Positions 2,337 to 30,535 of a stretch of 64,000 nt of DNA are shown here, piece after piece. The DNA comes from a virus (Duplodnaviria > Caudoviricetes), in IMG/VR virus record IMGVR_UViG_3300009095_000001, positions 33,538-97,537 of that record; one strand, given 5' to 3'. The stretch's first letter is position 1. Each line of letters opens with the position of its first letter. The translations under genes were made by a program, and so were the position numbers. Below the pieces are notes generated by a model that was not told the DNA's origin, searched no databases, and worked only from the letters and a program-made list of their open reading frames with translations.

Positions 2337-3469
2337 ACGGGTGCGTGGATCCTGGTGTAGCCCAGCAGCGAGCGGGCGTGTTCGATCTCTTCGGGCGTGA
2401 CGGTGCCGAGCAGCTGATCGGCGAGCATGCGCGCGCGCGTGTGCCGAGGTTGTTCGCGATCACCAGGCCACCGGCTGACGAATCGGGCCCGGATCGCCGC
2501 GGTGATCATCTGCTCGCGCGCATCGGCGAGTGCCTCGCGGACCGGCCTCACCGTCTCCGCGTCAATGTCGGCCGCGCGGTTCAGGTACTCCGGCTCGCAG
2601 CCGTTCGACTTCGGAAACGCCGTGCTCAGGCGCCGCGCCTTGTCGAGCACCGCGAGCTCGAGCGTGCGCACCAGGTAGTCGCACCGCTGCGCCGACGCGA
2701 CGAGCAACGCCTCGGGCTTGGGCTCGGGGGAGTCCGGGCCTTCGCCAACCAGCCGCGGCCCTTCGTAGGTGTCGCCGAGAAGCTCAGCGCACATGTCGAG
2801 CTGGTCGGACGTGCGCGGGTCGTCCGGCATGCCCGCCAAGATCTCGCACAGCTTGGAGTCGTCGTAGCTCGCCCGCTTGGGCTTGGGCTTCGCCGGCGCG
2901 TGCGGTCGACGGGTGAAGTTTGGCCGGCTTGTCGGTGGCGGGCTCGCGGGCAGCCGCTCCATGTAGCTCTCGCCGATCACCAGCGCGGCGCGTTCGAGCC
3001 GGACCATCTTCCACGCAGCCCGGTCGAGCTCAGCCTCGCTGACGCCCGCGAGCACGGCCGCCTTGGCGATCGCCACCAGCCGCGGATCCGCCAAGCTCTC
3101 CACGCGGCGGATCGGGTACGCCACGCCGTTGTCGAAGTCGTAGGCCCCGCGGCCCCATCCGATCGCTTCGACCTCCGCGACCGCAGCGAGGAACCGCGAG
3201 CGCCAGGCGATCGTCAGCTGCTCAGGCAGCGGGTCATCGGTCTCGCCGAGCAGCTCAGCACCCAACCGCTCGCGGACCGAGCCAAAGCCGCTGGGCAGCT
3301 CCGGCACGTAGCCATCCCGGGCGCGGCGGATCAGCGTGTCCGCGTGGGCCAGCAGCGCGCGCGCGCGCGTCTGCGGGTGCAGGAGACGGCGGCGATCGGC
3401 GAAGCGGCGGCAGTGCAGCCACGATGCCTCGCGGGCTTCCAAATCAAGCGACACAGCCGGCCTCCACAA
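2333..3469 (-). CDS. Hypothetical protein
   Basis: Long ORF overlapping both neighbours; no motif recognised. Confidence 0.6.
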   Translation of the reverse strand: MWRPAVSLDLEAREASWLHCRRFADRRRLLHPQTRARALLAHADTLIRRARDGYVPELPSGFGSVRERLGAELLGETDDPLPEQLTIAWRSRFLAAVAEVEAIGWGRGAYDFDNGVAYPIRRVESLADPRLVAIAKAAVLAGVSEAELDRAAWKMVRLERAALVIGESYMERLPASPPPTSRPNFTRRPHAPAKPKPKRASYDDSKLCEILAGMPDDPRTSDQLDMCAELLGDTYEGPRLVGEGPDSPEPKPEALLVASAQRCDYLVRTLELAVLDKARRLSTAFPKSNGCEPEYLNRAADIDAETVRPVREALADAREQMITAAIRARFVSRWPGDREQPRHTRARMLADQLLGTVTPEEIEHARSLLGYTRIHAPV

Positions 3470-19780: not shown

Positions 19781-19814
19781 AAAGCGACCAGGCGAAGCTT
19801 GGTCGCTTTTTGTT
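19781..19814 (+). terminator. Rho-independent terminator (probably bidirectional)
   Basis: AAAGCGACCAGGC-GAA-GCTTGGTCGCTTT-TTGTT between convergent genes. Confidence 0.8.
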
Positions 19815-20860
19815 TACCTCTGCGGGTTGACTACGCGGATGGTGGATTCACGAATCTTGCACGTAGCAGCGGCGTTTGGATCACACTTCAATCGATAGAG
19901 TCGGCCCACGGACACGCCTGGAGTCAGTCGCCTGGCGATGCGAAAGAACGACCACTTCGCTGCGTCAGAGTTGTCGTTCCAAAATACCGTGACGGGGTTC
20001 CCCTGGTCGCTATATGTTCCGGATCCGTCGTCGTATTGTAGCTGTAAGACCACGTTGTCTCCGCCGCCGGTGTTGACCTGCCCCCATCCCTCCGCGATGA
20101 CGAGCACCTCGCTAGACTGCGGCAAACAGCGAACACTAGTGACCAGCGCAAGATTGGTAGCTTGAAGCGCGGTCTCGGCCTCTTGCTCTCCTGTCGCGTA
20201 GGTCCACCCGTTTGTGCTGTGGTGCACATAGTTCAGCGCAGGGTCGTCCGTCGGCCGATAGACCAGATTTCCGTTGCTATCGGCTACGAGTTCACGCTCG
20301 CTCGCCGGGGCAACGGCCGGCGAGAGCTTGACTACTCCGGTTGTCAATTTCGCTCCGGTGGTGATCGAAACGTCGGCCTTGTGCTCCGCTGTGTCGTTGA
20401 ACGCCGCAGGTTTATTGAACGTGGCCGTGTTATCGAATGTCGCGGTATTCTTGAACACCGCTGCTCCGTTGAAGGTGAACGTGACCGTCGCCGACGTCGA
20501 CACCGGACCGTTGAATTCCGTGGTCCCGTTGAAGTCCGCCTCGGACCCGTTCGCCATGATCAGCGAGCTCCCGGACTCAAACTCCACCGTCGCGTTGTCG
20601 CTCACAAACAACTGCGCGCCGTCGAGAAGCGTCGGCGTTCCCGACCACTGCCAGCTATTCAGCGCCGTGGCGACCTGGTCGAATACCAGCCCGTCCAACG
20701 TCCCGCCCTGGCTCAGCACGATGTTGACGAGCTCCATCTGAACCGAGTTGCACCACTCAGGGCTGAGCTGCGTGGGTGGAGTGTCCGTCGTGCCTTTGAA
20801 CCCGTGGAGCCCGGGCCCGAACATGTTGGCGACAGCCGTAGGAGTGAGGATGACCTGCAT
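19814..20860 (-). CDS. Tail fibre protein (Mu gp49/S-type N-terminus)
   Basis: GFKGTTDTPPTQLSPEWCNSVQMELVNIVLSQGGTLD...DQVATAL anchor motif; hexapeptide F(N/D)xxAx shaft repeats; lower-GC C-terminal domain. Confidence 0.75.
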   Translation of the reverse strand: MQVILTPTAVANMFGPGLHGFKGTTDTPPTQLSPEWCNSVQMELVNIVLSQGGTLDGLVFDQVATALNSWQWSGTPTLLDGAQLFVSDNATVEFESGSSLIMANGSEADFNGTTEFNGPVSTSATVTFTFNGAAVFKNTATFDNTATFNKPAAFNDTAEHKADVSITTGAKLTTGVVKLSPAVAPASERELVADSNGNLVYRPTDDPALNYVHHSTNGWTYATGEQEAETALQATNLALVTSVRCLPQSSEVLVIAEGWGQVNTGGGDNVVLQLQYDDGSGTYSDQGNPVTVFWNDNSDAAKWSFFRIARRLTPGVSVGRLYRLKCDPNAAATCKIRESTIRVVNPQR

Positions 20861-20914: not shown

Positions 20915-22762
20915 GTGGACGGGACCGAACGCAGCGACGACGACGAGTTCGTGCTGCTGCAGTATCAGCGCGAGTGGGTCGATGAGCTGATCGTCAACAG
21001 CGTCTGCCCGGTCTGCAGGTCAGCCAGCGTCGCGCCTCCGGGGCCGATGGGACTGAGCAAAGAGGAGCGTGAGCTGGCTATCGCTGAGCAGCGAGAGCTC
21101 GCTGCTCAGCTCGAGGGGCACGATACCCGGTGGCTCGCGAAGACCGAAGATCAGATCGCTAATCTCGAAAAGCGGTTGGTGGCGGATGGCAAATGCGATC
21201 GCTACGGCTGCTACGGCTGGCTAGTCGCCAAGAAGAAAAACTTCACCGTCGTCGCTGAAAAGAGCCGCCAGATCGGATTCACGTGGGGCACCGCCTGCGG
21301 AGCGGTGATCGTCGCATCGCTGCCGAGGAACCAGGGCGGGCTCGACGTCTACTACATGTCGACGGGGCAGGATGATGCTCGCGACTTCATCAACGAGTGC
21401 ATGCGGTGGATCATCGAGAAGTTCTCGCCGATCCTCGAGCGCTGCCCGGAAGTCGAAGAATTCGATTGGATCGACGACGACGATCCCGTAGCCATCCAGA
21501 CCTTCCGCATTCGGTTCCCGAGCGGGTTCGCTATCTACGCGCTGCCAAGCCGACCTGCCCGTATGCGAGGCAAGAAGCGGTGCCTAGCGATCCTCGACGA
21601 AGCGGCGCAAAACGACCTCGACGCGTGGATCAAGGCCACGGGCGCTCTCAAGTTCTGGGGTGGGCAGCGTGCGATCATTTCGACGCACTACGGATCGGAT
21701 AGCGCCTTCTACAAGTACGTCCAGCGCGTCAAGGCGAGCATTGCGGACGGCAAGCGGATGGCGTCGCTGCATAGCGTGTTCCTGCATGACGCGCTTCGGC
21801 AGGGCGTCTATCGCCGCATGTGCAGGCTTGCGCGCCCACAGGTCCGGTGGACGCAGGAGCTCGAGGACGCGTGGGTAGAGGAACTGCGAAACGAGTACGG
21901 CGATGGCTTCGACGAGGAGTGCCTGGGTATCGTCGCGGGCGCGAGCAATCAGCTGATCGGCCGCCAGCTCGTCGTCGCTGCGCAGACGCTGTCGCCCGCC
22001 GAATGCCCGATCGTCGAGATCTGCGGCGGCGATGAACCCCGCATGTGGATCAACGGCGACCTGGTCGAGAGCTCGGACAAGCCTTGGCCGCTGCCCACCG
22101 AGAGCGTGCAGGAGACCGCTTCGCCCGAAGAGCGCGAGCGGATGGTGCGTGGCTGGCTCGACGCGCACCTCGCATCGACCCTCAAGCGCATCAACGCGCT
22201 CGGCCACGACATTCACGTCGGCGACGACTACGGCCGCTCGGGCGATATCAGCTACAAGGTCATCGGCACGAACGACTCGGCCAACCGTCGCGCGGTCCGG
22301 CTGGTGATCGAGTGCGATCGCGTCCCGTTCACGATCCAGTCCCAGATCGCCGACTACTGTTGGCCGATCCTGACTCGCCTGCGCAGCGGCTCGGGCGACG
22401 GCAACGGCAACGGCTCGCAGTGTGCCGAGCGGGCGAAGGACATGACCCGCGGGAAGATGGCGGTGACCATGCGGCTACCCGACACCGCATTTACTCGGCT
22501 CCGCACTCGGCTCGAGCACGGGACCCTCGCGCTTCCGCGGCACAGCAAAGAGCTCGCCGACGACCTGACCTCGCTCAAGCGCAAGGGCAATGGCAAGGGC
22601 ATCGACGCACCGCAACGCAGGACCGATCGCGGCCAGCAGCGGCACGCCGACGGTGCCTACGCGCTTGCCCACTTCGAGCACAGCATTGATACTGACGGTC
22701 AGGTCGTGCAGCTTTCGTCTGTTCGACGCGTGAAAAGGTCACTGTTCCCGACGAGGCGATGA
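20915..22762 (+). CDS. terL: Terminase large subunit (Mu gp28-like)
   Basis: LLQYQREW, EKSRQIGFTW, ILDEAA, IISTHYG, FDEEC, GDDYGRSGD, HADGAYALA; GTG start at 20915. Confidence 0.92.
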   Translation: MDGTERSDDDEFVLLQYQREWVDELIVNSVCPVCRSASVAPPGPMGLSKEERELAIAEQRELAAQLEGHDTRWLAKTEDQIANLEKRLVADGKCDRYGCYGWLVAKKKNFTVVAEKSRQIGFTWGTACGAVIVASLPRNQGGLDVYYMSTGQDDARDFINECMRWIIEKFSPILERCPEVEEFDWIDDDDPVAIQTFRIRFPSGFAIYALPSRPARMRGKKRCLAILDEAAQNDLDAWIKATGALKFWGGQRAIISTHYGSDSAFYKYVQRVKASIADGKRMASLHSVFLHDALRQGVYRRMCRLARPQVRWTQELEDAWVEELRNEYGDGFDEECLGIVAGASNQLIGRQLVVAAQTLSPAECPIVEICGGDEPRMWINGDLVESSDKPWPLPTESVQETASPEERERMVRGWLDAHLASTLKRINALGHDIHVGDDYGRSGDISYKVIGTNDSANRRAVRLVIECDRVPFTIQSQIADYCWPILTRLRSGSGDGNGNGSQCAERAKDMTRGKMAVTMRLPDTAFTRLRTRLEHGTLALPRHSKELADDLTSLKRKGNGKGIDAPQRRTDRGQQRHADGAYALAHFEHSIDTDGQVVQLSSVRRVKRSLFPTRR

Positions 22763-22763
22763 A

Positions 22764-25130
22764 ATGACCAAAGCAGCCAAGAGCCGAGCGAGCGGTGCGA
22801 AATCGGGTGTGAAGTCGGTAGCGAAGTCGGGGGCAAGGGGAGCGAGGGTGAGCGCGAAGCGGCCAGCAGCGAAGGTCAGCAAGCGCGGCGACAGCAAGCC
22901 CGCGGCCAAGGCCACCGCACGCACCGACGGCACCAAGACCACGCAGAAGATCGGCGACATTGCTGCGATCCTGCGCGGCGAGTTCACGCCCGGCATGCCC
23001 GGCTGGCTGTTCGGCGAAGCGGCCTATGCTTGGTATCTCAGCAACGGCGTCGCGCGGCAGATGATCGGCCGCTTCGCCAGCCTGATGACGAAGCCAGCCC
23101 ACAAGTACACGCACACCGACGTGCGCGACTTCGACTGGGCCCCCACGATCAGCAAGCTCGACGACCTCAAGTACAAGATCGCGTGCCGCATGGCTGCGAC
23201 GTGGGCGTTCGTTTTCGGCGCGGGAATCATCGAGCACGTGGTCGACGATTGCGATCGCGACGGCGAGCCGCTCGAGCTCGTCAACGTCCGCGCGTACAAG
23301 GGCGTCCGCATCCACACCTCCTACAGCCTGCGGCCGCAACACGGCTACGACTGGAAGACCGCCGAGTGGTTCGAGACCGTCCGCGTGGGAGCTCGCCGGC
23401 TCATCCATCGCTCGCGACTCACGATCATGGTCGTCACCGACACGCCCGACGGCATCGTGATCCCGTCGATCAGCGGATGGCCGCCGAGCTGGCTCGAGAG
23501 CATCTACCAGTCCTTCAACGAGTGGACGAAGATCGAGTGCGACGTGTCGGCGATCGTCCGCACGTTGTCGATCTTGCACCTGCAGCTCGAAGGCTGGGCG
23601 AAAGCAGCGGCGAACCCAGACAGCGTCGAGGCAGCAGCCGTCGCGGCTCGGATCGAGCAAGCCCTGGAAGGCCTGAGCTCGCACGGTCTGCTCGTGACCG
23701 ACAAGGCGGACGCGCTCGGCGAAGCTTCCCGCCAGATCACCGGGCTCGACAAACTCGTCGAGCGCAAGGCCCTGCGTGCAGCGGCGAGCTCAGGCGTTCC
23801 GAAAGAGCTGCTGCTCATGGAGGCCGAGGGCAACCTCGGGCTCAACTCCGCGCCAATCGACGCCTACTACGATCTTGTCAGCGGCTGGGCGGAGCAGATG
23901 ATCGTGCCCGCGATCACCCGCGCGTCCGAGATCGCGCTCGCGGCTCAGCGCTACAAGGCCAAGCTGGCGGGCGAGCTGCTCGTCGTGCCCTCGCAATTCA
24001 TCGTGGTTCAGGACGCGATCCAGCAGGCGACCGGAAAAGAGCGGGCCGAGCAGCGCAGGGCCAACGCGGACGCGCGCGCTTCCGATGCGACGAAGACCGG
24101 CGTACCGCTCGAGGTGATCCTCGGCGACCCCACGCTGCGCGAGGACTACCCGGATATCGACGCGTTCCTCGAAGCCAAGGCCACGCGCGAGCAGCAAGCC
24201 CGCGAGAAGGCGCAGGCGTCCGGGCTCGACAACCCCGAAGGCGAGGATCTGATCAGCGCCGCGCAGGCGGCCAAGGCGTTCGGGATCACCGGGAGCACGC
24301 TGATCAAGTACGCCAAGCAAGGCATCGTCCGCGGGCACCAGGTTGGTGGTCGGTGGAAGTTCTATCTCTCGCAGGTGACTCAGGCGCTCATGGGCAAGTC
24401 GCCCGAGCAGATCGAGCAAGCCGTGGATCAGCGGCTCGACGATATCGGCCTGTCCGAGTCCACCAAGTTTGGCGACGTGTGGGGCGCGAGCGATGCGATG
24501 CGGGAGATCTTCGCGGTGCTCGAGCGCATCCGCGACACCACGCTCTCGGTGCTGCTGCTGGGCGAGACCGGCACCGGCAAAGAGGGCATCGCTCGGGGGC
24601 TCCACGTCTCCGGGCCATTCGTCGCGCTCAACTGCGCCGAGCTCGACTACGAACCGCGCGAGGCTGCGAAGCGACTGCGCGAGGCTCTGACCGCGGCGGC
24701 CGGCGGCACGCTGTTCTTGGATGAAGTCGGCGACTGCCCGCGGGACGTTCAATCCGCGCTGCTCCGCATCCTGGCGACCGAGCACGAAGCCCGCATCGTC
24801 TCGGCAACGTCGCGCTCCATGGACTGGCTGCGGCCGGATCTGTACTACCGGCTGGCCGAGGTCGAGATCGAGATCCCACCGCTGCGCGATCGAGAGGCCG
24901 ACGTCATCACGATCGCGCAGGGCATCTACGAGAGCTACACCAGCGAGCGCGGCTACGAAGCGGCCGAGCCTGCGTTCACCGAAGCCGCGATCGCAACGAT
25001 GCTGGCCTACCCGTGGATGGGCAACATCCGCGAGCTTAAGTCGGCCGTGTGCCGCGGCGTCGAGCTGGCGCCTCGGGCCGCTCCGGTCGGCATCGAGCAC
25101 CTGCAGCTCAACATGCGAGGCCAGCGTTGA
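22764..25130 (+). CDS. Portal protein (DUF1073-type) fused to excisionase-like HTH and sigma54-activator-like AAA+ domain
   Basis: Follows terL; YLSNGVARQMI, IHRSRL, ITGLDKLV, AASSGVPKELL...GLNS...YYDLV; then ISAAQAAKAFGITGSTLIKYAKQGIVRGHQVGGRWKF; then GETGTGKE, FVALNCA, GGTLFLDEVG, LRPDLYYRL, IPPLRDR, YPWMGNIREL. Confidence 0.85.
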   Translation: MTKAAKSRASGAKSGVKSVAKSGARGARVSAKRPAAKVSKRGDSKPAAKATARTDGTKTTQKIGDIAAILRGEFTPGMPGWLFGEAAYAWYLSNGVARQMIGRFASLMTKPAHKYTHTDVRDFDWAPTISKLDDLKYKIACRMAATWAFVFGAGIIEHVVDDCDRDGEPLELVNVRAYKGVRIHTSYSLRPQHGYDWKTAEWFETVRVGARRLIHRSRLTIMVVTDTPDGIVIPSISGWPPSWLESIYQSFNEWTKIECDVSAIVRTLSILHLQLEGWAKAAANPDSVEAAAVAARIEQALEGLSSHGLLVTDKADALGEASRQITGLDKLVERKALRAAASSGVPKELLLMEAEGNLGLNSAPIDAYYDLVSGWAEQMIVPAITRASEIALAAQRYKAKLAGELLVVPSQFIVVQDAIQQATGKERAEQRRANADARASDATKTGVPLEVILGDPTLREDYPDIDAFLEAKATREQQAREKAQASGLDNPEGEDLISAAQAAKAFGITGSTLIKYAKQGIVRGHQVGGRWKFYLSQVTQALMGKSPEQIEQAVDQRLDDIGLSESTKFGDVWGASDAMREIFAVLERIRDTTLSVLLLGETGTGKEGIARGLHVSGPFVALNCAELDYEPREAAKRLREALTAAAGGTLFLDEVGDCPRDVQSALLRILATEHEARIVSATSRSMDWLRPDLYYRLAEVEIEIPPLRDREADVITIAQGIYESYTSERGYEAAEPAFTEAAIATMLAYPWMGNIRELKSAVCRGVELAPRAAPVGIEHLQLNMRGQR

Positions 25131-25504
25131 CGATCAGCGAGCGCCAGTTTCCGATCATCGCTCCGCGCGACAACAGGGGCCGCGTGCTTGGGGGCTGCCC
25201 GGAGTCCGTGCCCTGGTCGTTCGTCGAGCCCCACCGCGCGCAGGCGCTGGCGAATCATTCGCAGACCTTGGAGCGGTTGGCCGAGCGTGGCGGGCTCGCG
25301 CCGAGTGAGCTGCACGCGATCGTGCACGATCGGCCGTGGGTACCGATGGACCGCGACAAGGCGGTGGCTTGGCTGGTCGAGCGAGTGCAGACCATGGCGA
25401 TGGAGCAGGCGCTGCGGCGGGCTCAAGTCGAATCGCTGGACAGCTACACGGTGACGACGGTTGGGCCGGTGCAGTCAGGCACGTTGCGGGAGTTCAAGCG
25501 GTGA
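25127..25504 (+). CDS. Phage hypothetical protein
   Basis: PHRAQALANHSQTLERLAERGGLAPSEL; TTG start overlaps the portal stop. Confidence 0.7.
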   Translation: MTISERQFPIIAPRDNRGRVLGGCPESVPWSFVEPHRAQALANHSQTLERLAERGGLAPSELHAIVHDRPWVPMDRDKAVAWLVERVQTMAMEQALRRAQVESLDSYTVTTVGPVQSGTLREFKR

Positions 25505-25902
25505 CGAAGGGCGATCGCGTCTGCATCATCGGCGGTCCGCGGGTCGGCAAGACGACCCTGGCCAGCTTGATGGAGAACGTGCTGCACACCGACGACCTGG
25601 TCGGCCGGCTCGAATGGTCGGCCGCGAGCGAGCTGGTAGCGACCGACTGGCTCATGCGTCCCGGGCCGTGGGTAATCGAGGGCGTTGCGGTCGCGCGGGC
25701 GCTGCGAAAGTGGCTCGCCGCCAACGCCAAGGGCAAGCCGTGCGATCGCGTGCTCGAGCTGACCAAGCCGCTCGTGGAGCTGTCGAAGGGTCAGGCGGCG
25801 ATGGCCAAGGGGCACGAGACGGTGTGGCAGCAAGTGCGCCCGCTGCTGCTCGAGCGCGGAGTGGTGGTGGAGCTGGGCGCGTTGCAGGAGATCCAGCGGT
25901 GA
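25501..25902 (+). CDS. Small P-loop kinase (nucleotide-kinase-like)
   Basis: VCIIGGPRVGKTTLA, LHTDD, WVIEGV. Confidence 0.8.
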   Translation: MTKGDRVCIIGGPRVGKTTLASLMENVLHTDDLVGRLEWSAASELVATDWLMRPGPWVIEGVAVARALRKWLAANAKGKPCDRVLELTKPLVELSKGQAAMAKGHETVWQQVRPLLLERGVVVELGALQEIQR

Positions 25903-26564
25903 CCATTGGCGAGCGACTGCGACGCGAACGGAAGCGCGCCGGGCTGACTCAGGCTGAGCTCGCGCTCGCGCTCGATGTGCACCATGCCTACGTGTGGAAG
26001 ATCGAGAACGGGAAACGTAGGCCGTCGAAGCGCCTGATCGACAGGTGGTCGGCTGCCACGGCATCGACGCAAGCTGACCTGTTGCTCGAAGGCCCGGCCC
26101 TGTTCGACCTTGCGTTTCCGATCGACCGACGGATAGACGACCCGTTCACCGCGCGGCGCGTGCTCGACGTCGTGCCGGCGGGCGTTCGAAAGCAGGTTTC
26201 GGTCTGGCCAAGCAGCAATGAGACGGTGCTGCGGCTGCGCGCTCGCGGGTCAGCGTTGCCGTCTGCGATCGGCCTAGCCGGCACAACGGCCCCGGGCATC
26301 GGTCAACTCGGGACACCGACAGTCTCGCCGCTGCGCGCAGCCGATGAGCTCGTCGCCTGGATTCGAGCAGCAGACGAACGCCATGCAGCGGAGCAAGTCG
26401 AGGCACGCATGGCCGCTGCTGCTGCTCGTGGATGCGTCACGATCGGCAGGTTCGGCGCGGTGTTTGTGGCTCGCGTGGCCGCTCTGAGCAAGCACGCGTC
26501 GGTGGCATTGCAGGATTTGGTCGAAGAATCGCCAATCGGTCTTTTTGTGCCAGCCGCATGGTAG
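25899..26564 (+). CDS. XRE-family HTH protein with C-terminal extension
   Basis: IGERLRRERKRAGLTQAELALALDVHHAYVWKIENGKRRPS. Confidence 0.85.
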   Translation: MTIGERLRRERKRAGLTQAELALALDVHHAYVWKIENGKRRPSKRLIDRWSAATASTQADLLLEGPALFDLAFPIDRRIDDPFTARRVLDVVPAGVRKQVSVWPSSNETVLRLRARGSALPSAIGLAGTTAPGIGQLGTPTVSPLRAADELVAWIRAADERHAAEQVEARMAAAAARGCVTIGRFGAVFVARVAALSKHASVALQDLVEESPIGLFVPAAW

Positions 26565-26656: not shown

Positions 26657-26770
26657 GTGGACCAGTCGAAAAAGTCGAGCGAGCAGGCGAAGCCCAAGGC
26701 CGCGCCAAAGCCCGCGCCGACCAGCGACGAGCGGCCGGTTGATGGAAAGCCCATCACGAGGTTCGGATGA
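26657..26770 (+). CDS. 37-aa peptide coupled to the protease gene
   Basis: My translation MDQSKKSSEQAKPKAAPKPAPTSDERPVDGKPITRFG; TGA overlaps ATG 26767; TACCAC 6 nt upstream. Confidence 0.45.
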   Translation: MDQSKKSSEQAKPKAAPKPAPTSDERPVDGKPITRFG

Positions 26771-28551
26771 CCCAAGCCAGCACGCAAAGCGCCGCAGCAA
26801 CCGACGCCGCGGTAGCTGATCCTGCGGTGACCGGCAGCGAGGGCGCGGCCGATCCCGGCCAGGCTGCCGAGCCACCGCCCGCCGATCCCGGCCAAGCTCC
26901 GGCCGCGGAGCCCGGCCAAGGCGAGCCCGGCCAGGGTGACGATGGCGAGCTGCCGACCGCCGACAGCATCACGCTGGCGCTTCGCGGCGTCGCTGCTCTG
27001 CCGCCGATCAAGCGGGAAGCTCGAGGCTGGACCGACAAGGCGATCGCGGGCGCGATGGCGCTGCTGACTTCGATGGGGGTAGCCCCGCATGCCGACGCAG
27101 GCGAACGGGTCTACCGCACCTGCACGATGGACTTCGCGCTGGGGTCCGAGGATCGCGTCGCGGTGGATCGGGCGCTCGCCATCGCCGACGAGCTCGGATC
27201 GCAAGCCGACGGTGCCAAGGTCGACGCGGCGCAGATCAACGCGATTGCGGAGCGGCTACGCGCTGACGGATTCGCCGACAAGGTCACGACCGACGGCCGG
27301 CTGATCGTCACGGGCTACGCCGCGCGCACGGGCTCGCAGCTCTACGGCGACGGCAAGAGCACCTGGTACGAGTACCGGAGCGAGGACGAAGTCGAGAAAA
27401 GCCTCAAGAGCTTCGACTTCGCGACGTTCACCGACGACCACCCGCCGGTGCTCGTGACGGCGGATAACTGGCGCGAGTACGCCAGGGGCATGCTCGGCAC
27501 GGGTGCGGAGCTGCTGCCGCCCGACGAAGACGGCTTGCGCTTCGTCAAGGTGCAGATCTGCGTCGGCGACATTGCGGTGATCCGCAAGATGCGTGACGGC
27601 AAGGTGCAGCTGTCGACCGGCTACACCACGATCGCGGTGCGCGATCCTGGCGTCGATGCGCAGGGCATCCGCTACACGTTTCGGCAGACCGACATTCAGG
27701 TCAACCACCAATCTCTCGTCGATGAAGCTCGCGCGGGCGCCAAGGCTCGCGTGCTGATCGACGGCGCTTTTGTTTTCGAGGCCAGCAAGGACGACGTCAT
27801 GACGACCAACAACGCGAACGCGAACACCCCGAAGCCGAAGACCGATCAGCCCGAGGGCGCGATCCCGTCGAAGAAAGACCAGCTCGACCCCGAGGCCGCG
27901 ACGGGTTTGCTCGACGCGATCAAGGCTCTCCTCAACGGAGAGATCGAGCCCGCGGGCGCCTACGCCAAGATCGCCGAAGTGCTCGGCCTCGATCCGGCGA
28001 TGGTCACTCAGCACCTGGGCGGTGGCGAGATCATGGAGCTGGACGGCGTCAAGCTGCTGGTCAGCAAGGACGCGGCCGCGAAGCTCCGCGCTCGCGAGCA
28101 GAAGCTCAGCACCGACGCTGCCCAGCGCGATACCGATCTCGCAGCGACCAACGGCGAGCTCGCCGGGCTGCGGCGCACGGTCGAGAAGCTCGAGGCCGAT
28201 GCGATCGCCCGCGCGACGGTCGACCTGGAGAACGAGATTGCCCCGCTGTGCCCGCAGCTCGTGAAGTCGTGGGCGGACGGCAAGCGCCCCGCCACGATGA
28301 CGAAGATGCGCGAGGCGGCGATCCTCGATCTCGATCCGCTGGCGAAGGTCGATCTCGACAAGGCGCGCGGGACTGACGAGAAGCCTCCGCCGACCTACGA
28401 CGCGTTCGTGGAGTCGCTCTACGGCTCGACCAAGCGCCATGCTGCGGTTCGGGCCAAGGCCACGACGACGAACTCCGACAGCCGCTTCTCGGCCCCGGCC
28501 ACGATCAAGACCGGGGGCTTCCACGGCAATACCGGAACCCCCGGCAACTGA
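26767..28551 (+). CDS. Prohead protease/scaffold, DUF2213 family
   Basis: DGRLIV...AARTGSQLYG, YRSEDEV, TFTDDHPP..VTADNWRE, GKVQLSTGY, QTDIQVNH.SLVDEARAG. Confidence 0.88.
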   Translation: MTQASTQSAAATDAAVADPAVTGSEGAADPGQAAEPPPADPGQAPAAEPGQGEPGQGDDGELPTADSITLALRGVAALPPIKREARGWTDKAIAGAMALLTSMGVAPHADAGERVYRTCTMDFALGSEDRVAVDRALAIADELGSQADGAKVDAAQINAIAERLRADGFADKVTTDGRLIVTGYAARTGSQLYGDGKSTWYEYRSEDEVEKSLKSFDFATFTDDHPPVLVTADNWREYARGMLGTGAELLPPDEDGLRFVKVQICVGDIAVIRKMRDGKVQLSTGYTTIAVRDPGVDAQGIRYTFRQTDIQVNHQSLVDEARAGAKARVLIDGAFVFEASKDDVMTTNNANANTPKPKTDQPEGAIPSKKDQLDPEAATGLLDAIKALLNGEIEPAGAYAKIAEVLGLDPAMVTQHLGGGEIMELDGVKLLVSKDAAAKLRAREQKLSTDAAQRDTDLAATNGELAGLRRTVEKLEADAIARATVDLENEIAPLCPQLVKSWADGKRPATMTKMREAAILDLDPLAKVDLDKARGTDEKPPPTYDAFVESLYGSTKRHAAVRAKATTTNSDSRFSAPATIKTGGFHGNTGTPGN

Positions 28552-28594
28552 GCCCGCTGTTCCACGACTTCCCGGCAAGACAGAGGACTGACCG

Positions 28595-29398
28595 ATGACG
28601 ACCACGCTTCGCTACCAGATCAATCCGACTCGCGGCCAGCGGGTCTCCAGCAACCCCACGCGCTCGCGGCTGTGGCCCGGCAACAACACGATCAAGACGC
28701 TCACGGTCGGTGGCACCTATGTCGACGGGACCTACAGCTACACGATCGGCGGCGTCGAGGTGTCGGTGAGCCTGACCGGCAGCTCTCTTGCTGGTGCCGC
28801 GGCAGCGCTCAAGGCCAAGCACGACTCGCTGCCGACCGCGCTCGAGCAGGCGGAGGCCATCGTCGATGGTGCGGTCTTGCGCCTCGACTCGCGTACGCCC
28901 GAGACGACTTTCACGCTGGGGAGCTTGACGGCCCCCGGCACGGCCACGCTCACGGAAGACGACGAGACCGAGTCGAGCGGTGCCCGGCTGCGGCCCGGTC
29001 TGTTCGTGGCGTTGCACAACACCAAGCCCGAGTGGCTCCGCCGTCTGACGACGGGCGACACCGCGGCCGCGATCTTCGGCGTCACGCAGGAGGGCCCCGA
29101 CATGGAGACCAGCGACGGCGACGAGGACTCCGTCGACGGCTGGGATCCGGGAGCGATGGTCACCGTGCAGGGGCACGGTGAGATCCCCGTGATCTGCGAG
29201 CAAGAGGTCACCAACGTCAACGCGGCGGTGTACGTCCGCGTCGTCGCGACGGGCGACGAAGAGGCGGGCGCGGCTCGTCTCGATGCAGACAGCGGCGACG
29301 CGGTCGCGGCCAGCAACGTCCGTTGGTCGGGCCTCAGCTGGACCGACGATGACGGCCAGATCATCGCGATGGTGATCATCAGCAACCCCGCGGCCTGA
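28595..29398 (+). CDS. Head decoration/cement protein
   Basis: Between protease and capsid; PGLFV, IFGVT, GAMVTVQGHGEIPV, VYVRV. Confidence 0.7.
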   Translation: MTTTLRYQINPTRGQRVSSNPTRSRLWPGNNTIKTLTVGGTYVDGTYSYTIGGVEVSVSLTGSSLAGAAAALKAKHDSLPTALEQAEAIVDGAVLRLDSRTPETTFTLGSLTAPGTATLTEDDETESSGARLRPGLFVALHNTKPEWLRRLTTGDTAAAIFGVTQEGPDMETSDGDEDSVDGWDPGAMVTVQGHGEIPVICEQEVTNVNAAVYVRVVATGDEEAGAARLDADSGDAVAASNVRWSGLSWTDDDGQIIAMVIISNPAA

Positions 29399-29443
29399 GC
29401 CTGACCGCACGCATCCAACCTCCACAACCACAGGATCAGAACG

Positions 29444-30535
29444 ATGCCCTTCGACAAGCCCAACCGGAAGCCCCTCTACGACTTCAAGGACCCGGCGAAC
29501 CGCCACGACGAGGAGACCCTTGTTCCGGTGCTGGACAAGGCCGCTCAGCTCGCCGCCCAGAAGTGGGGCGACACCGAGATCGCCCGCAAGCTCGGATTCG
29601 ACTCGGGCCAGATCGCGTCGCTGTCTCGCTGCGCGACGACGGCCTTCATCGAGGGCTTCTACCGGCGTCAAGCCGCCGAGACCCCTTGGGCCAACGGCGA
29701 GATCATCACGATCACCGACGGTGGCGTGGGTATCGGCGCCACGCGGCTCGAGTGGGGCGAGACTGCGGTCCGCAACCCGTCGCAAAACTACGGCTTGACG
29801 GCGCTCGACCAGAGCCCCGAGCGAGCGCTCGACCTCGCCGTGCGGATGCACGAGGCGAAGCCCGGCAAGATCGCCCACAAGATCCAGCTCGGGTTCCACG
29901 AAATGGCGCAGGCCGCCATGGCTGGCTGGAACAAGATGAAGGACAAGGGCGACACGCTTCGCGAGCAGCACATGCTCGACTTCAACGAGGCGATCCTCCG
30001 CGGCATCCCGGCGGCCGGCAAGCTCGGGATCACCAACTACCCCGGCATCAAGCGGATGGTCTCGACCATCGACTGGGCGACCGCCAACGCCGACGTCATC
30101 TACGACGAGTGGACCCAGGCGAAGCGGCTCATGTATACGGACGCGTCCAACCGCGAGCGTGCGATCAAGCCGACCAAGACCCTGATCCCGCTGAGCGTGG
30201 ATGAGCACTTCTCCGACGAACTCTTCAACCCCAGCGGTGGCGACACCACGCTGAAGACGTTCATCGAGAGGAACAACCGCGGGCACGAGGTCATGATGGA
30301 CGACTCGCTGCGGAGCGCCGACACGTTCGGCCACGCGGGCGCGATCCTGCTCGCGCCCGAGGCCGACTCGATCCAGGTGACCTGCCCCGTCTTCGCGCAG
30401 GTCCAGCCGCCGGTGGAAGTGGCCGGCAACCAGTGGGTGATCGAGATCGAGATCTGGACGCTCTTCTACGGCGTGCAGATGCGAGACCCGCGAGCCGTCT
30501 GCTTCGTCGACGGCGGCACCCTCTGGACGGTCTGA
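29444..30535 (+). CDS. Major capsid protein (DUF2184/encapsulin-like HK97 fold)
   Basis: 363 aa; GIPAAGKLGITNYPGI, WATANADVIYD, PTKTLIP, TTLKTFIERN, GVQMRDPRAVCFVDG. Confidence 0.85.
   Translation: MPFDKPNRKPLYDFKDPANRHDEETLVPVLDKAAQLAAQKWGDTEIARKLGFDSGQIASLSRCATTAFIEGFYRRQAAETPWANGEIITITDGGVGIGATRLEWGETAVRNPSQNYGLTALDQSPERALDLAVRMHEAKPGKIAHKIQLGFHEMAQAAMAGWNKMKDKGDTLREQHMLDFNEAILRGIPAAGKLGITNYPGIKRMVSTIDWATANADVIYDEWTQAKRLMYTDASNRERAIKPTKTLIPLSVDEHFSDELFNPSGGDTTLKTFIERNNRGHEVMMDDSLRSADTFGHAGAILLAPEADSIQVTCPVFAQVQPPVEVAGNQWVIEIEIWTLFYGVQMRDPRAVCFVDGGTLWTV

Follow-up and report, generated by a model that had tools for sequence, protein, structure and literature searches.

What a bacteriophage portal protein does with an ATPase of the kind that activates bacterial transcription is the question raised by one gene of IMGVR_UViG_3300009095_000001, a virus record of IMG/VR (Duplodnaviria; Caudoviricetes). 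The window analysed here comprises 64,000 nucleotides, i.e., bases 33538-97537 of this complete 97,537-bp record; its G+C content is about 67%, and the sequencing runs containing the sequence are soil metagenomes. The gene encodes, in a single open reading frame (ORF), a portal protein followed by a winged helix-turn-helix (HTH) and by an AAA+ domain of the type seen in bacterial enhancer-binding proteins (bEBPs), a domain from which the GAFTGA loop is missing. This architecture had been proposed in the initial annotation of the locus, and was borne out by a domain scan and by an AlphaFold2 (AF2) model of the full-length protein built with the family alignment. The parts of the gene are the following, in window positions and amino acids (aa):

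22764-25130 (+): whole gene, portal, winged HTH and loop-less bEBP-type AAA+ in one open frame, 788 aa plus stop
22764-22937 (+): N-terminal tail, aa 1-58, rich in Ala, Lys, Ser and Arg, predicted disordered, found in closer relatives only
22941-24098 (+): portal core, aa 60-445 (PF06381; phrog_146; portal fold; match to the Pam3 portal 8hds)
24099-24218 (+): crown and C-terminal helices, aa 446-485, from the predicted model
24219-24251 (+): flexible linker, aa 486-496, low confidence in the model, with conserved Pro491 and Glu494 (NPEGED)
24252-24389 (+): winged HTH, aa 497-542, HTH_17 or excisionase/MerR type, with a GRWKF wing
24390-24473 (+): second linker, aa 543-570, low model confidence, length varying across the family
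24474-24878 (+): AAA+ alpha/beta subdomain, aa 571-705, from profile, alignment and model
24561-24584 (+): Walker A, GETGTGKE, aa 600-607
24645-24701 (+): site of the deletion of loop 1 (L1), the GAFTGA loop
24702-24725 (+): Walker B, GGTLFLDE, aa 647-654
about 24774-24791 (+): site of the deletion of the loop 2 (L2) hairpin
24831-24854 (+): RPDLYYRL, aa 690-697, within which lie the arginine fingers R690 and R696
24879-25127 (+): AAA+ lid, aa 706-788 (PF25601)
25020-25037 (+): GNIREL, aa 753-758, with the sensor II residue Arg756

Two further motifs of the AAA+ part, DYEPREAAKRLRE and PPLRDR, occupy aa 628-640 and aa 705-710, respectively. The N-terminal half of the protein matched PF06381 (Phage_portal_3 or DUF1073, the HI1409 family) over aa 88-437 with an E-value of 1.6e-21 and 76.8 bits, against a cut-off of 33.8, and the portal family phrog_146 of PHROGs with an E-value of 3.9e-27. 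As the initial annotation had supposed, this half was modelled as a portal. Indeed, the predicted local distance difference test score (pLDDT) of the portal core was mostly above 80, and the top 50 Foldseek matches of the portal region in BFVD were all phage portals (best E-value 1.6e-18). The disordered tail ahead of it is histone-H1-like in composition. At the other end of the protein, Sigma54_activat (PF00158) matched aa 574-702 with an E-value of 9.8e-20, these 129 residues spanning 165 model positions; the model was aligned in two pieces (positions 3-62 and 85-167) and the loop was skipped. The lid was matched by AAA_lid_14 over aa 708-787, and NCBIfam models of NtrC, NifA, NorR, PspF and other activators matched by their central domains only, far under the equivalog cut-offs. 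AAA+ and lid were modelled with a pLDDT above 90 (aa 571-785), and the model superposed on NtrC1, PspF, FleQ and ZraR with a root-mean-square deviation of 2.5-3 Å and Foldseek E-values of about 1e-16, in line with the phmmer E-values of about 3e-27 obtained for the AAA+ sequence against solved bEBPs.

Between the two parts, a helix-turn-helix with a beta-hairpin wing was predicted by AF2, and the crown, the HTH and the AAA+ were separated by flexible linkers in the models. In the window protein, HTH_17 was found over aa 497-538 with 19.7 bits, under the Pfam cut-off of 27; relatives exceed this cut-off (34.2 bits in P0125, and PF12728 is recorded for P0028-P0037), and the HTH also matched the excisionase and regulator family phrog_66 (E-value 1.2e-6). 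No match to the Fis-type HTH (HTH_8, PF02954) was found in the fusion protein, whose C-terminus is the lid. Two other explanations of the central region were considered and rejected. As a small terminase, the HTH had only a weak phrog_57 match (E-value 0.0045), and this candidate was rejected on topology, the portal C-terminus being inside the head. An internal start yielding a free HTH-AAA+ protein would lie at the domain boundary, where the residue is Leu here (codon CTG) and Met in most relatives, Met being absent in distant members. Because this start is not conserved, a nested gene for a free regulator was rejected.

A protein of such composition might be an artefact or a product of decay, i.e., it might stem from misassembly or from read-through between two genes, or be a portal with a dead passenger domain. 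In favour of this, contigs assembled by Logan from the source run are interrupted at the codons of Walker A (24551-24580). The interruption, however, coincides with k-mers shared with bEBP genes: the codons of GETGTGKE are common to many such genes of soil bacteria, and in four soil runs the contig depth rises 5- to 10-fold over 24546-24679, where the assembly graphs branch. These shared k-mers likely fragment assemblies of the fusion gene. Moreover, the two contigs that meet there share 30 nt without differences, and a soil-metagenome contig identical over 22000-24580 bridges the portal, the HTH and the start of the AAA+. This check of the junctions, which had been suggested for the locus, thus revealed neither a stop nor a misassembly. 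When 5.8 billion clustered proteins were searched, about 35 clusters with portal, AAA+ and lid in frame were recovered at 34-100% identity; they derive from JGI, ENA, NCBI and Logan assemblies, with many contigs of 80-97 kb, and the frame is held open in about 35 independent cases, all of them within the same head module of myovirus genomes. In IMG/VR, 14 contigs bear the fusion with a conserved synteny (TerL, portal, in most cases an XRE-type gene, protease, cement and major capsid protein), and a scan with a TerL profile returned fusion-bearing contigs only, together with one more distant phage, L168. Hence the same architecture, sought in other phages, was found repeatedly. With the invariant catalytic residues and a ratio of nonsynonymous to synonymous substitutions (dN/dS) well below 1, described below, the probability of an artefact or of decay is virtually nil, and the fusion is not a misassembly.

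The module was never met off the portal. A phmmer search with aa 480-788 against 1.84 billion representatives gave no free-standing HTH-AAA+ relative, only fusion proteins outranking canonical bEBPs; intermediate high-scoring matches, considered as split forms, turned out to be tandem canonical bEBPs. Likewise, relatives of the portal, of TerL or of the HTH were absent from the neighbourhood of the AAA+ matches on 64 other viral contigs, no prophage copy was found in 185,579 species genomes, which gave ordinary bEBPs only, and tblastn against the cultured phages of INPHARED gave only bEBP-like matches in records resembling host DNA, the portal domain being too diverged for a tblastn link to cultured phages. 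The complete 97.5-kb genome contains a single portal gene, a single PF06381 match and a single PF00158 match, and all three are the fusion. In the outgroup phage L168 (1262-3754), whose TerL is 43% identical, the PF06381 portal is unfused (485 aa) and immediately followed by a MuF-like minor head gene, whereas no MuF was found in the complete fusion-bearing genomes.

What distinguishes the AAA+ domain from its bacterial relatives is the loss of loops from an otherwise preserved core. Relative to solved bEBPs, the sequence shows three gaps, i.e., 13-14 residues at ELFGH..GAFTGA, about 12-13 residues at the L2 hairpin that precedes sensor I, and 6 residues ahead of the arginine fingers. The helix normally bearing L1 runs uninterrupted in the model, and the next helix is joined to the sensor-I strand by only about 5 residues. 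The absence of the GAFTGA loop, the shortened loop-2 region and the want of a C-terminal Fis HTH, all reported in the initial annotation, were confirmed by alignments and profiles. In contrast to canonical bEBPs, in which SELFGHxxGAFTGAxxxRxG.FE and the L2 hairpin are present, GAFTGA occurred in no family member of a focused alignment. One portal subclade shows an exact 9-residue excision of HxxGAFTGA with L2 kept (the hairpin is retained in P0035-37, P0127 and P0128), while in the main clade, to which the window phage belongs, L1 is shorter by about 15 residues and the L2 hairpin is missing entirely. The family thus forms a clean series of loop loss, from the canonical bEBP through the 9-residue GAFTGA excision to the loss of both L1 and L2, which is useful for dissecting the function of the bare bEBP core.

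The catalytic apparatus has followed another course. Over 37 aligned family members, Walker A (GExGxGK), Walker B (LDE), R690, R696, PPLRxR and WxGNxR.L with the sensor II residue R756 are invariant. Mean pairwise identity is highest in the AAA+ subdomain (66%), compared with 53% in the HTH and 50% in the portal core. The AAA+ part is under purifying selection, as illustrated by Nei-Gojobori dN/dS values of about 0.24-0.34 for AAA+ and lid, next to 0.18-0.29 for the portal. The retention of residues for ATP binding, for hydrolysis and for action in trans argues for real ATP turnover by the module. In a tree with 80 sampled bEBPs, the fusion AAA+ domains form one clade on a long stem, with a support of 99 in the Shimodaira-Hasegawa-like approximate likelihood ratio test (SH-aLRT) and with the sister group not resolved; they are about 35-40% identical to any bEBP. 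A single clade points to a single, ancient capture of the AAA+, from a donor lineage that the tree does not name. These results fit the suggestion that a host ATPase domain was repurposed on the portal ring: there is one clade, the AAA+ is its most conserved part, and the catalytic residues do not vary.

With regard to sigma-54, no member has kept the GAFTGA loop and the module would hence be unable to act through this factor. No RpoN DNA-binding domain is encoded by the phage, and sites resembling the sigma-54 promoter (TGGCAC-N5-TTGCW) are not enriched, 18 being found for 21.3 expected by chance. Because the loop is gone, the Fis HTH is missing, the phage has no RpoN of its own and promoter-like sites occur at chance level, the fusion is not a working sigma-54 activator. 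The initial annotation had offered a second possibility, a dominant-negative decoy whose loop-less AAA+ would co-assemble with host bEBPs, poison their hexamers and shut down sigma-54-dependent responses. The bEBP fold and the elements of the subunit interface are indeed retained, and from what is established for GAFTGA mutants, loop-less subunits would render mixed bEBP rings defective for sigma-54 engagement, which counts for such a decoy. Mixed rings are nevertheless not expected at about 35-40% identity to any bEBP and with so long a stem; the invariant hydrolysis residues would be unneeded by a passive poison, and the module has a DNA-binding domain of its own and is held on a portal. We therefore consider the decoy, which these results leave unsupported, as very improbable. 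As for the host, the nearest named bEBPs are those of Myxococcota and of other phyla, and the AAA+ tree does not put the fusion domain within Myxococcota.

The closest parallels to such a domain are found among transcription regulators. With NtrC1, PspF, FleQ, ZraR and FlrA, the fusion shares the AAA+ fold and lid, Walker A and B, the arginine fingers, PPLRxR and the sensor II motif GNxREL. Unlike these bEBPs, it lacks GAFTGA/L1 (and L2 too in the main clade), a C-terminal Fis-type HTH and any receiver, FHA or GAF input domain, and its AAA+ is attached behind a virion protein. TyrR is a bEBP-like regulator that is L1-deleted and independent of sigma-54. Other L1-deleted bEBPs regulate sigma-70 promoters (10.1101/2023.06.06.543975; PMC6158489); in these regulators (Rhodobacter capsulatus NtrC, Caulobacter NtrC, NtrX and Vibrio VpsR), GAFTGA was lost from an otherwise intact AAA+, as in the fusion. 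The deletion in Caulobacter NtrC comprises 8 residues (10.1101/2023.06.06.543975), close to the exact 9 residues missing from one portal subclade. However, these are free, cytoplasmic proteins with a receiver domain and a C-terminal HTH, none of which applies to the fusion; its HTH is of the HTH_17 type and N-terminal to the ATPase, and L2 has been lost as well. A phage example is Htm (Gp204) of an Escherichia coli phage, a GAFTGA-less, bEBP-like AAA+ protein that reprograms host transcription (10.64898/2026.10.06.757011). Like the fusion AAA+, Htm resembles RtcR, PspF and NtrC structurally and has neither GAFTGA nor the bEBP HTH, whereas it differs in being a free early protein with a DD variant of Walker B and an N-terminal domain of its own, not fused to a structural protein. 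Since both substrate-engaging loops are lost, the AAA+ of the fusion would be an ATP-controlled switch of oligomerisation or conformation rather than a remodelling motor; joined to a DNA-binding domain and independent of sigma-54, such a switch would resemble the L1-deleted regulators.

The position of the module on the virion can be deduced from its partner. It is established from portal structures that the C-terminus of a portal, with its crown or barrel, faces the capsid interior. The 12 subunits would therefore each place an HTH and an AAA+ inside the head, at the inner mouth of the channel. The E217/PB1-like and Pam3 myoviruses share with the window phage a PF06381 portal, a DUF2213 protease, a cement protein of the E217 gp24/Pam3 gp6 type and a PF09950 major capsid protein. 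In E217 gp19, only residues 97-528 out of 765 are resolved, a barrel formed by the C-terminal part extends into the head, and another 237 residues remain unseen (PMC10329688). By analogy, the crown of the fusion would be directed into the capsid, and gp19 resembles the fusion both in its long C-terminal extension past the crown barrel and in its 96 unresolved N-terminal residues, comparable to the disordered tail described here. The remark in the initial annotation on C-terminal additions to portals of this family is thus in agreement with gp19 (PMC10329688) and with the description of portal-fused effector domains (PMC5512222). The cultured phages of INPHARED, unlike the fusion phages, have no portal with an HTH-AAA+. 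Effector domains fused to portal or MuF proteins were predicted to be packaged and injected (PMC5512222). As in the fusion, the accessory domain sits C-terminally on a head protein of the capsid interior encoded in the morphogenesis module; the cargo comprises nucleases, phosphoesterases, ADP-ribosyltransferases, peptidases and similar domains (PMC5512222), in contrast to an HTH with an AAA+, which is unreported as portal cargo.

From these elements, the portal-borne HTH-AAA+ may be a pre-packaged, DNA-bound factor acting on the incoming phage genome, an explanation that we favour tentatively while rating it somewhat short of even. Accessory proteins packaged in virions have precedents in T4 Alt and the N4 virion RNA polymerase, and SPP1 gp7 is also of the virion-delivered kind; the same logic has been set out for polyvalent proteins (Iyer et al. 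2017). The proposed course of events would be as follows. A bEBP ATPase would have been captured once and fused, with an N-terminally placed winged HTH, onto the portal C-terminus, where both domains would be held on flexible linkers at the inner opening of the DNA channel. ATP turnover would be confined to the producing cell and the next host, where ATP is presumably present. The module would be packaged by way of the portal, bound to phage DNA near the channel, and might be released by the head protease at the conserved Pro491-x-x-Glu494 of the linker aa 486-496, a candidate processing site. Not until the next infection begins, when it again finds itself in a cytoplasm, would it consume ATP, and it would there switch on or protect the incoming genome. 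The module would accordingly be the transcription-factor counterpart of portal- and MuF-fused effectors, of T4 Alt and of the N4 virion RNA polymerase. As context for a cargo function, the slot right after the portal is occupied by a MuF in the outgroup, while the complete fusion genomes have no MuF.

Several points weigh against this explanation. The packaging, cleavage, DNA binding and delivery of the module are all steps that we infer. The portal ring remains in the capsid, so that delivery needs a cleavage, which is guessed from the Pro and Glu of the linker, and a folded AAA+ must unfold for passage through the tail. The argument from the MuF slot is based on one outgroup contig, and the HTH is under the Pfam threshold in the window protein. 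Finally, no lineage encodes the module separately or on a MuF, as might be expected of some lineages if the module were meant to diffuse freely in the next host, and the 12-fold context of the portal may itself be needed.

This last point leads to a role in place, exerted in the producing cell at the portal vertex, which is possible although we regard it as doubtful. There, 12 AAA+ domains would be joined by the assembly of the ring and their active sites completed in trans. ATP turnover would aid the nucleation of the portal or procapsid, or, while the genome is being packaged, the handling of DNA at the inner channel end, where the leading end might be clamped or ordered, or back-slip prevented, with the HTH holding DNA; without the L1 and L2 pore loops, the ring would have a wider pore for double-stranded DNA. 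This is consistent with a module never seen off the portal and sitting on the sole portal gene, with invariant trans-acting arginine fingers, through which tethering in a ring would activate the ATPase, and with the progressive trimming of the pore loops. The linkers, of about 11 and 28 residues, are sufficient for a ring above the crown, and ATP would be absent from the virion, being available to the module in the cell that produces the phage or in the next host. However, there is no precedent for a portal with an ATPase on its side facing the capsid interior, 12 subunits do not correspond to the 6- or 7-fold rings of bEBPs, and a domain deprived of its pore loops has no obvious element for gripping DNA. 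In addition, a conventional TerL motor is present and many related portals, such as that of L168, assemble without the module. A more specific form of this idea, which appears decidedly unlikely, is that the 12 tethered AAA+ form rings coaxial with the channel above the crown, e.g., two stacked hexamers, with the pore loops deleted to admit double-stranded DNA. If true, such rings would be an ATP-dependent machine inside the capsid, acting on the genome in packaging or at the onset of ejection, and would add a second, internal nucleotide-driven component to the packaging vertex.

The genes surrounding the fusion belong to a morphogenesis module similar to that of Pam3/E217-like myoviruses, in the order TerL, fusion, three small genes including one for an XRE-type HTH protein, DUF2213 protease, cement and major capsid protein, then adaptor, sheath and tape measure. 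The stop codon of TerL lies 1 nt ahead of the ATG of the fusion. The neighbouring features are:

19814-20860 (-): ORF just upstream of TerL, with a weak match to the N-termini of tail fibres (phrog_1858, E-value 1.9e-7)
21047-22762 (+): large terminase TerL, adjoining the fusion upstream; start uncertain, possibly further upstream
25133-25504 (+): small coding region
about 25480-25902 (+): small coding region
25905-26564 (+): XRE-type HTH protein, about 219 aa, downstream of the fusion and conserved there in most relatives
26767-30535 (+): rest of the head module, i.e., protease, cement and major capsid protein
26767-28551 (+): DUF2213 head maturation protease
28595-29398 (+): cement protein, PF22758
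29444-30535 (+): major capsid protein, PF09950

Profile searches of the region upstream of TerL revealed no TerS. The ORF on the opposite strand fails a filter on third-position GC, and it is uncertain whether it is a real gene. The two small regions between the fusion and the XRE-type gene were delineated by third-position GC and gave no family match; they are kept in some relatives only, the first (geneA) in L004 and the second (geneB) in L002 and L005. At the level of the whole record, the label "direct terminal repeats" is given in IMG/VR, while the first and last 20-200 bases differ, so that a repeat may have been trimmed. Outside the window, genome positions 3101-3152 hold an attP-like 3' half of a tRNA-Gly(CCC) followed by a hairpin terminator (to 3185). 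Among 301 Myxococcota genomes, none contained a near-exact match to this half, and the best one (88% over 50 nt) corresponds to ordinary tRNA similarity. The myxobacterial setting of the initial annotation is therefore conjectural.

The XRE-type protein comprises a C-terminal part of about 160 aa without assignment, its gene directly abuts the fusion in L009 and L014, and a comparison with the Atlas gave generic HTH_3 clusters only. A head operon is an odd location for a repressor-like gene, and its product may be a partner of the fusion. Its conservation beside the fusion also bears on a further explanation, which we hold to be unlikely, namely that the portal moonlights in the cytoplasm. Late in infection, the fusion, unassembled or not yet assembled, would bind DNA through its HTH and regulate phage or host genes independently of sigma-54, and its incorporation into procapsids would withdraw the regulator and couple assembly to gene expression. 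An HTH with an L1-deleted bEBP AAA+ is indeed the composition of known sigma-70-type regulators, a phage protein with a bEBP-like AAA+ (Htm) alters host transcription, and moonlighting is known of the T7 portal, which acts against RelA/SpoT of its host (PMC13483052). Against this, a regulator needs no fusion to a portal and no conserved internal start would supply a free form, and a gene expressed with the late head genes would come late for taking over the host.

In agreement with the initial annotation, which knew of no such protein, no earlier description of the fusion was found in the literature searched, including searches for portals with sigma-54-related or AAA+ domains. The fusion joins two known kinds of element, portal-fused cargo and L1-deleted bEBP modules, in an arrangement of which this literature gives no description. 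The usual view of portals is that of passive rings without nucleotide, with the terminase, on the outside, as the sole ATPase of the vertex. Here, a whole clade keeps a catalytically intact-looking AAA+ and a DNA-binding domain on the inner end of its sole portal, down to a portal identity of about 30%. Should the module be cargo, a portal would for the first time be seen to deliver a protein resembling a transcription factor, and the module would be a natural case of a sigma-54 activator turned into a sigma-54-independent switch by the excision of loops. Should it act in place, an internal, energy-using part would have been added to the vertex for packaging and ejection. Either outcome would extend the known functions of phage head proteins.

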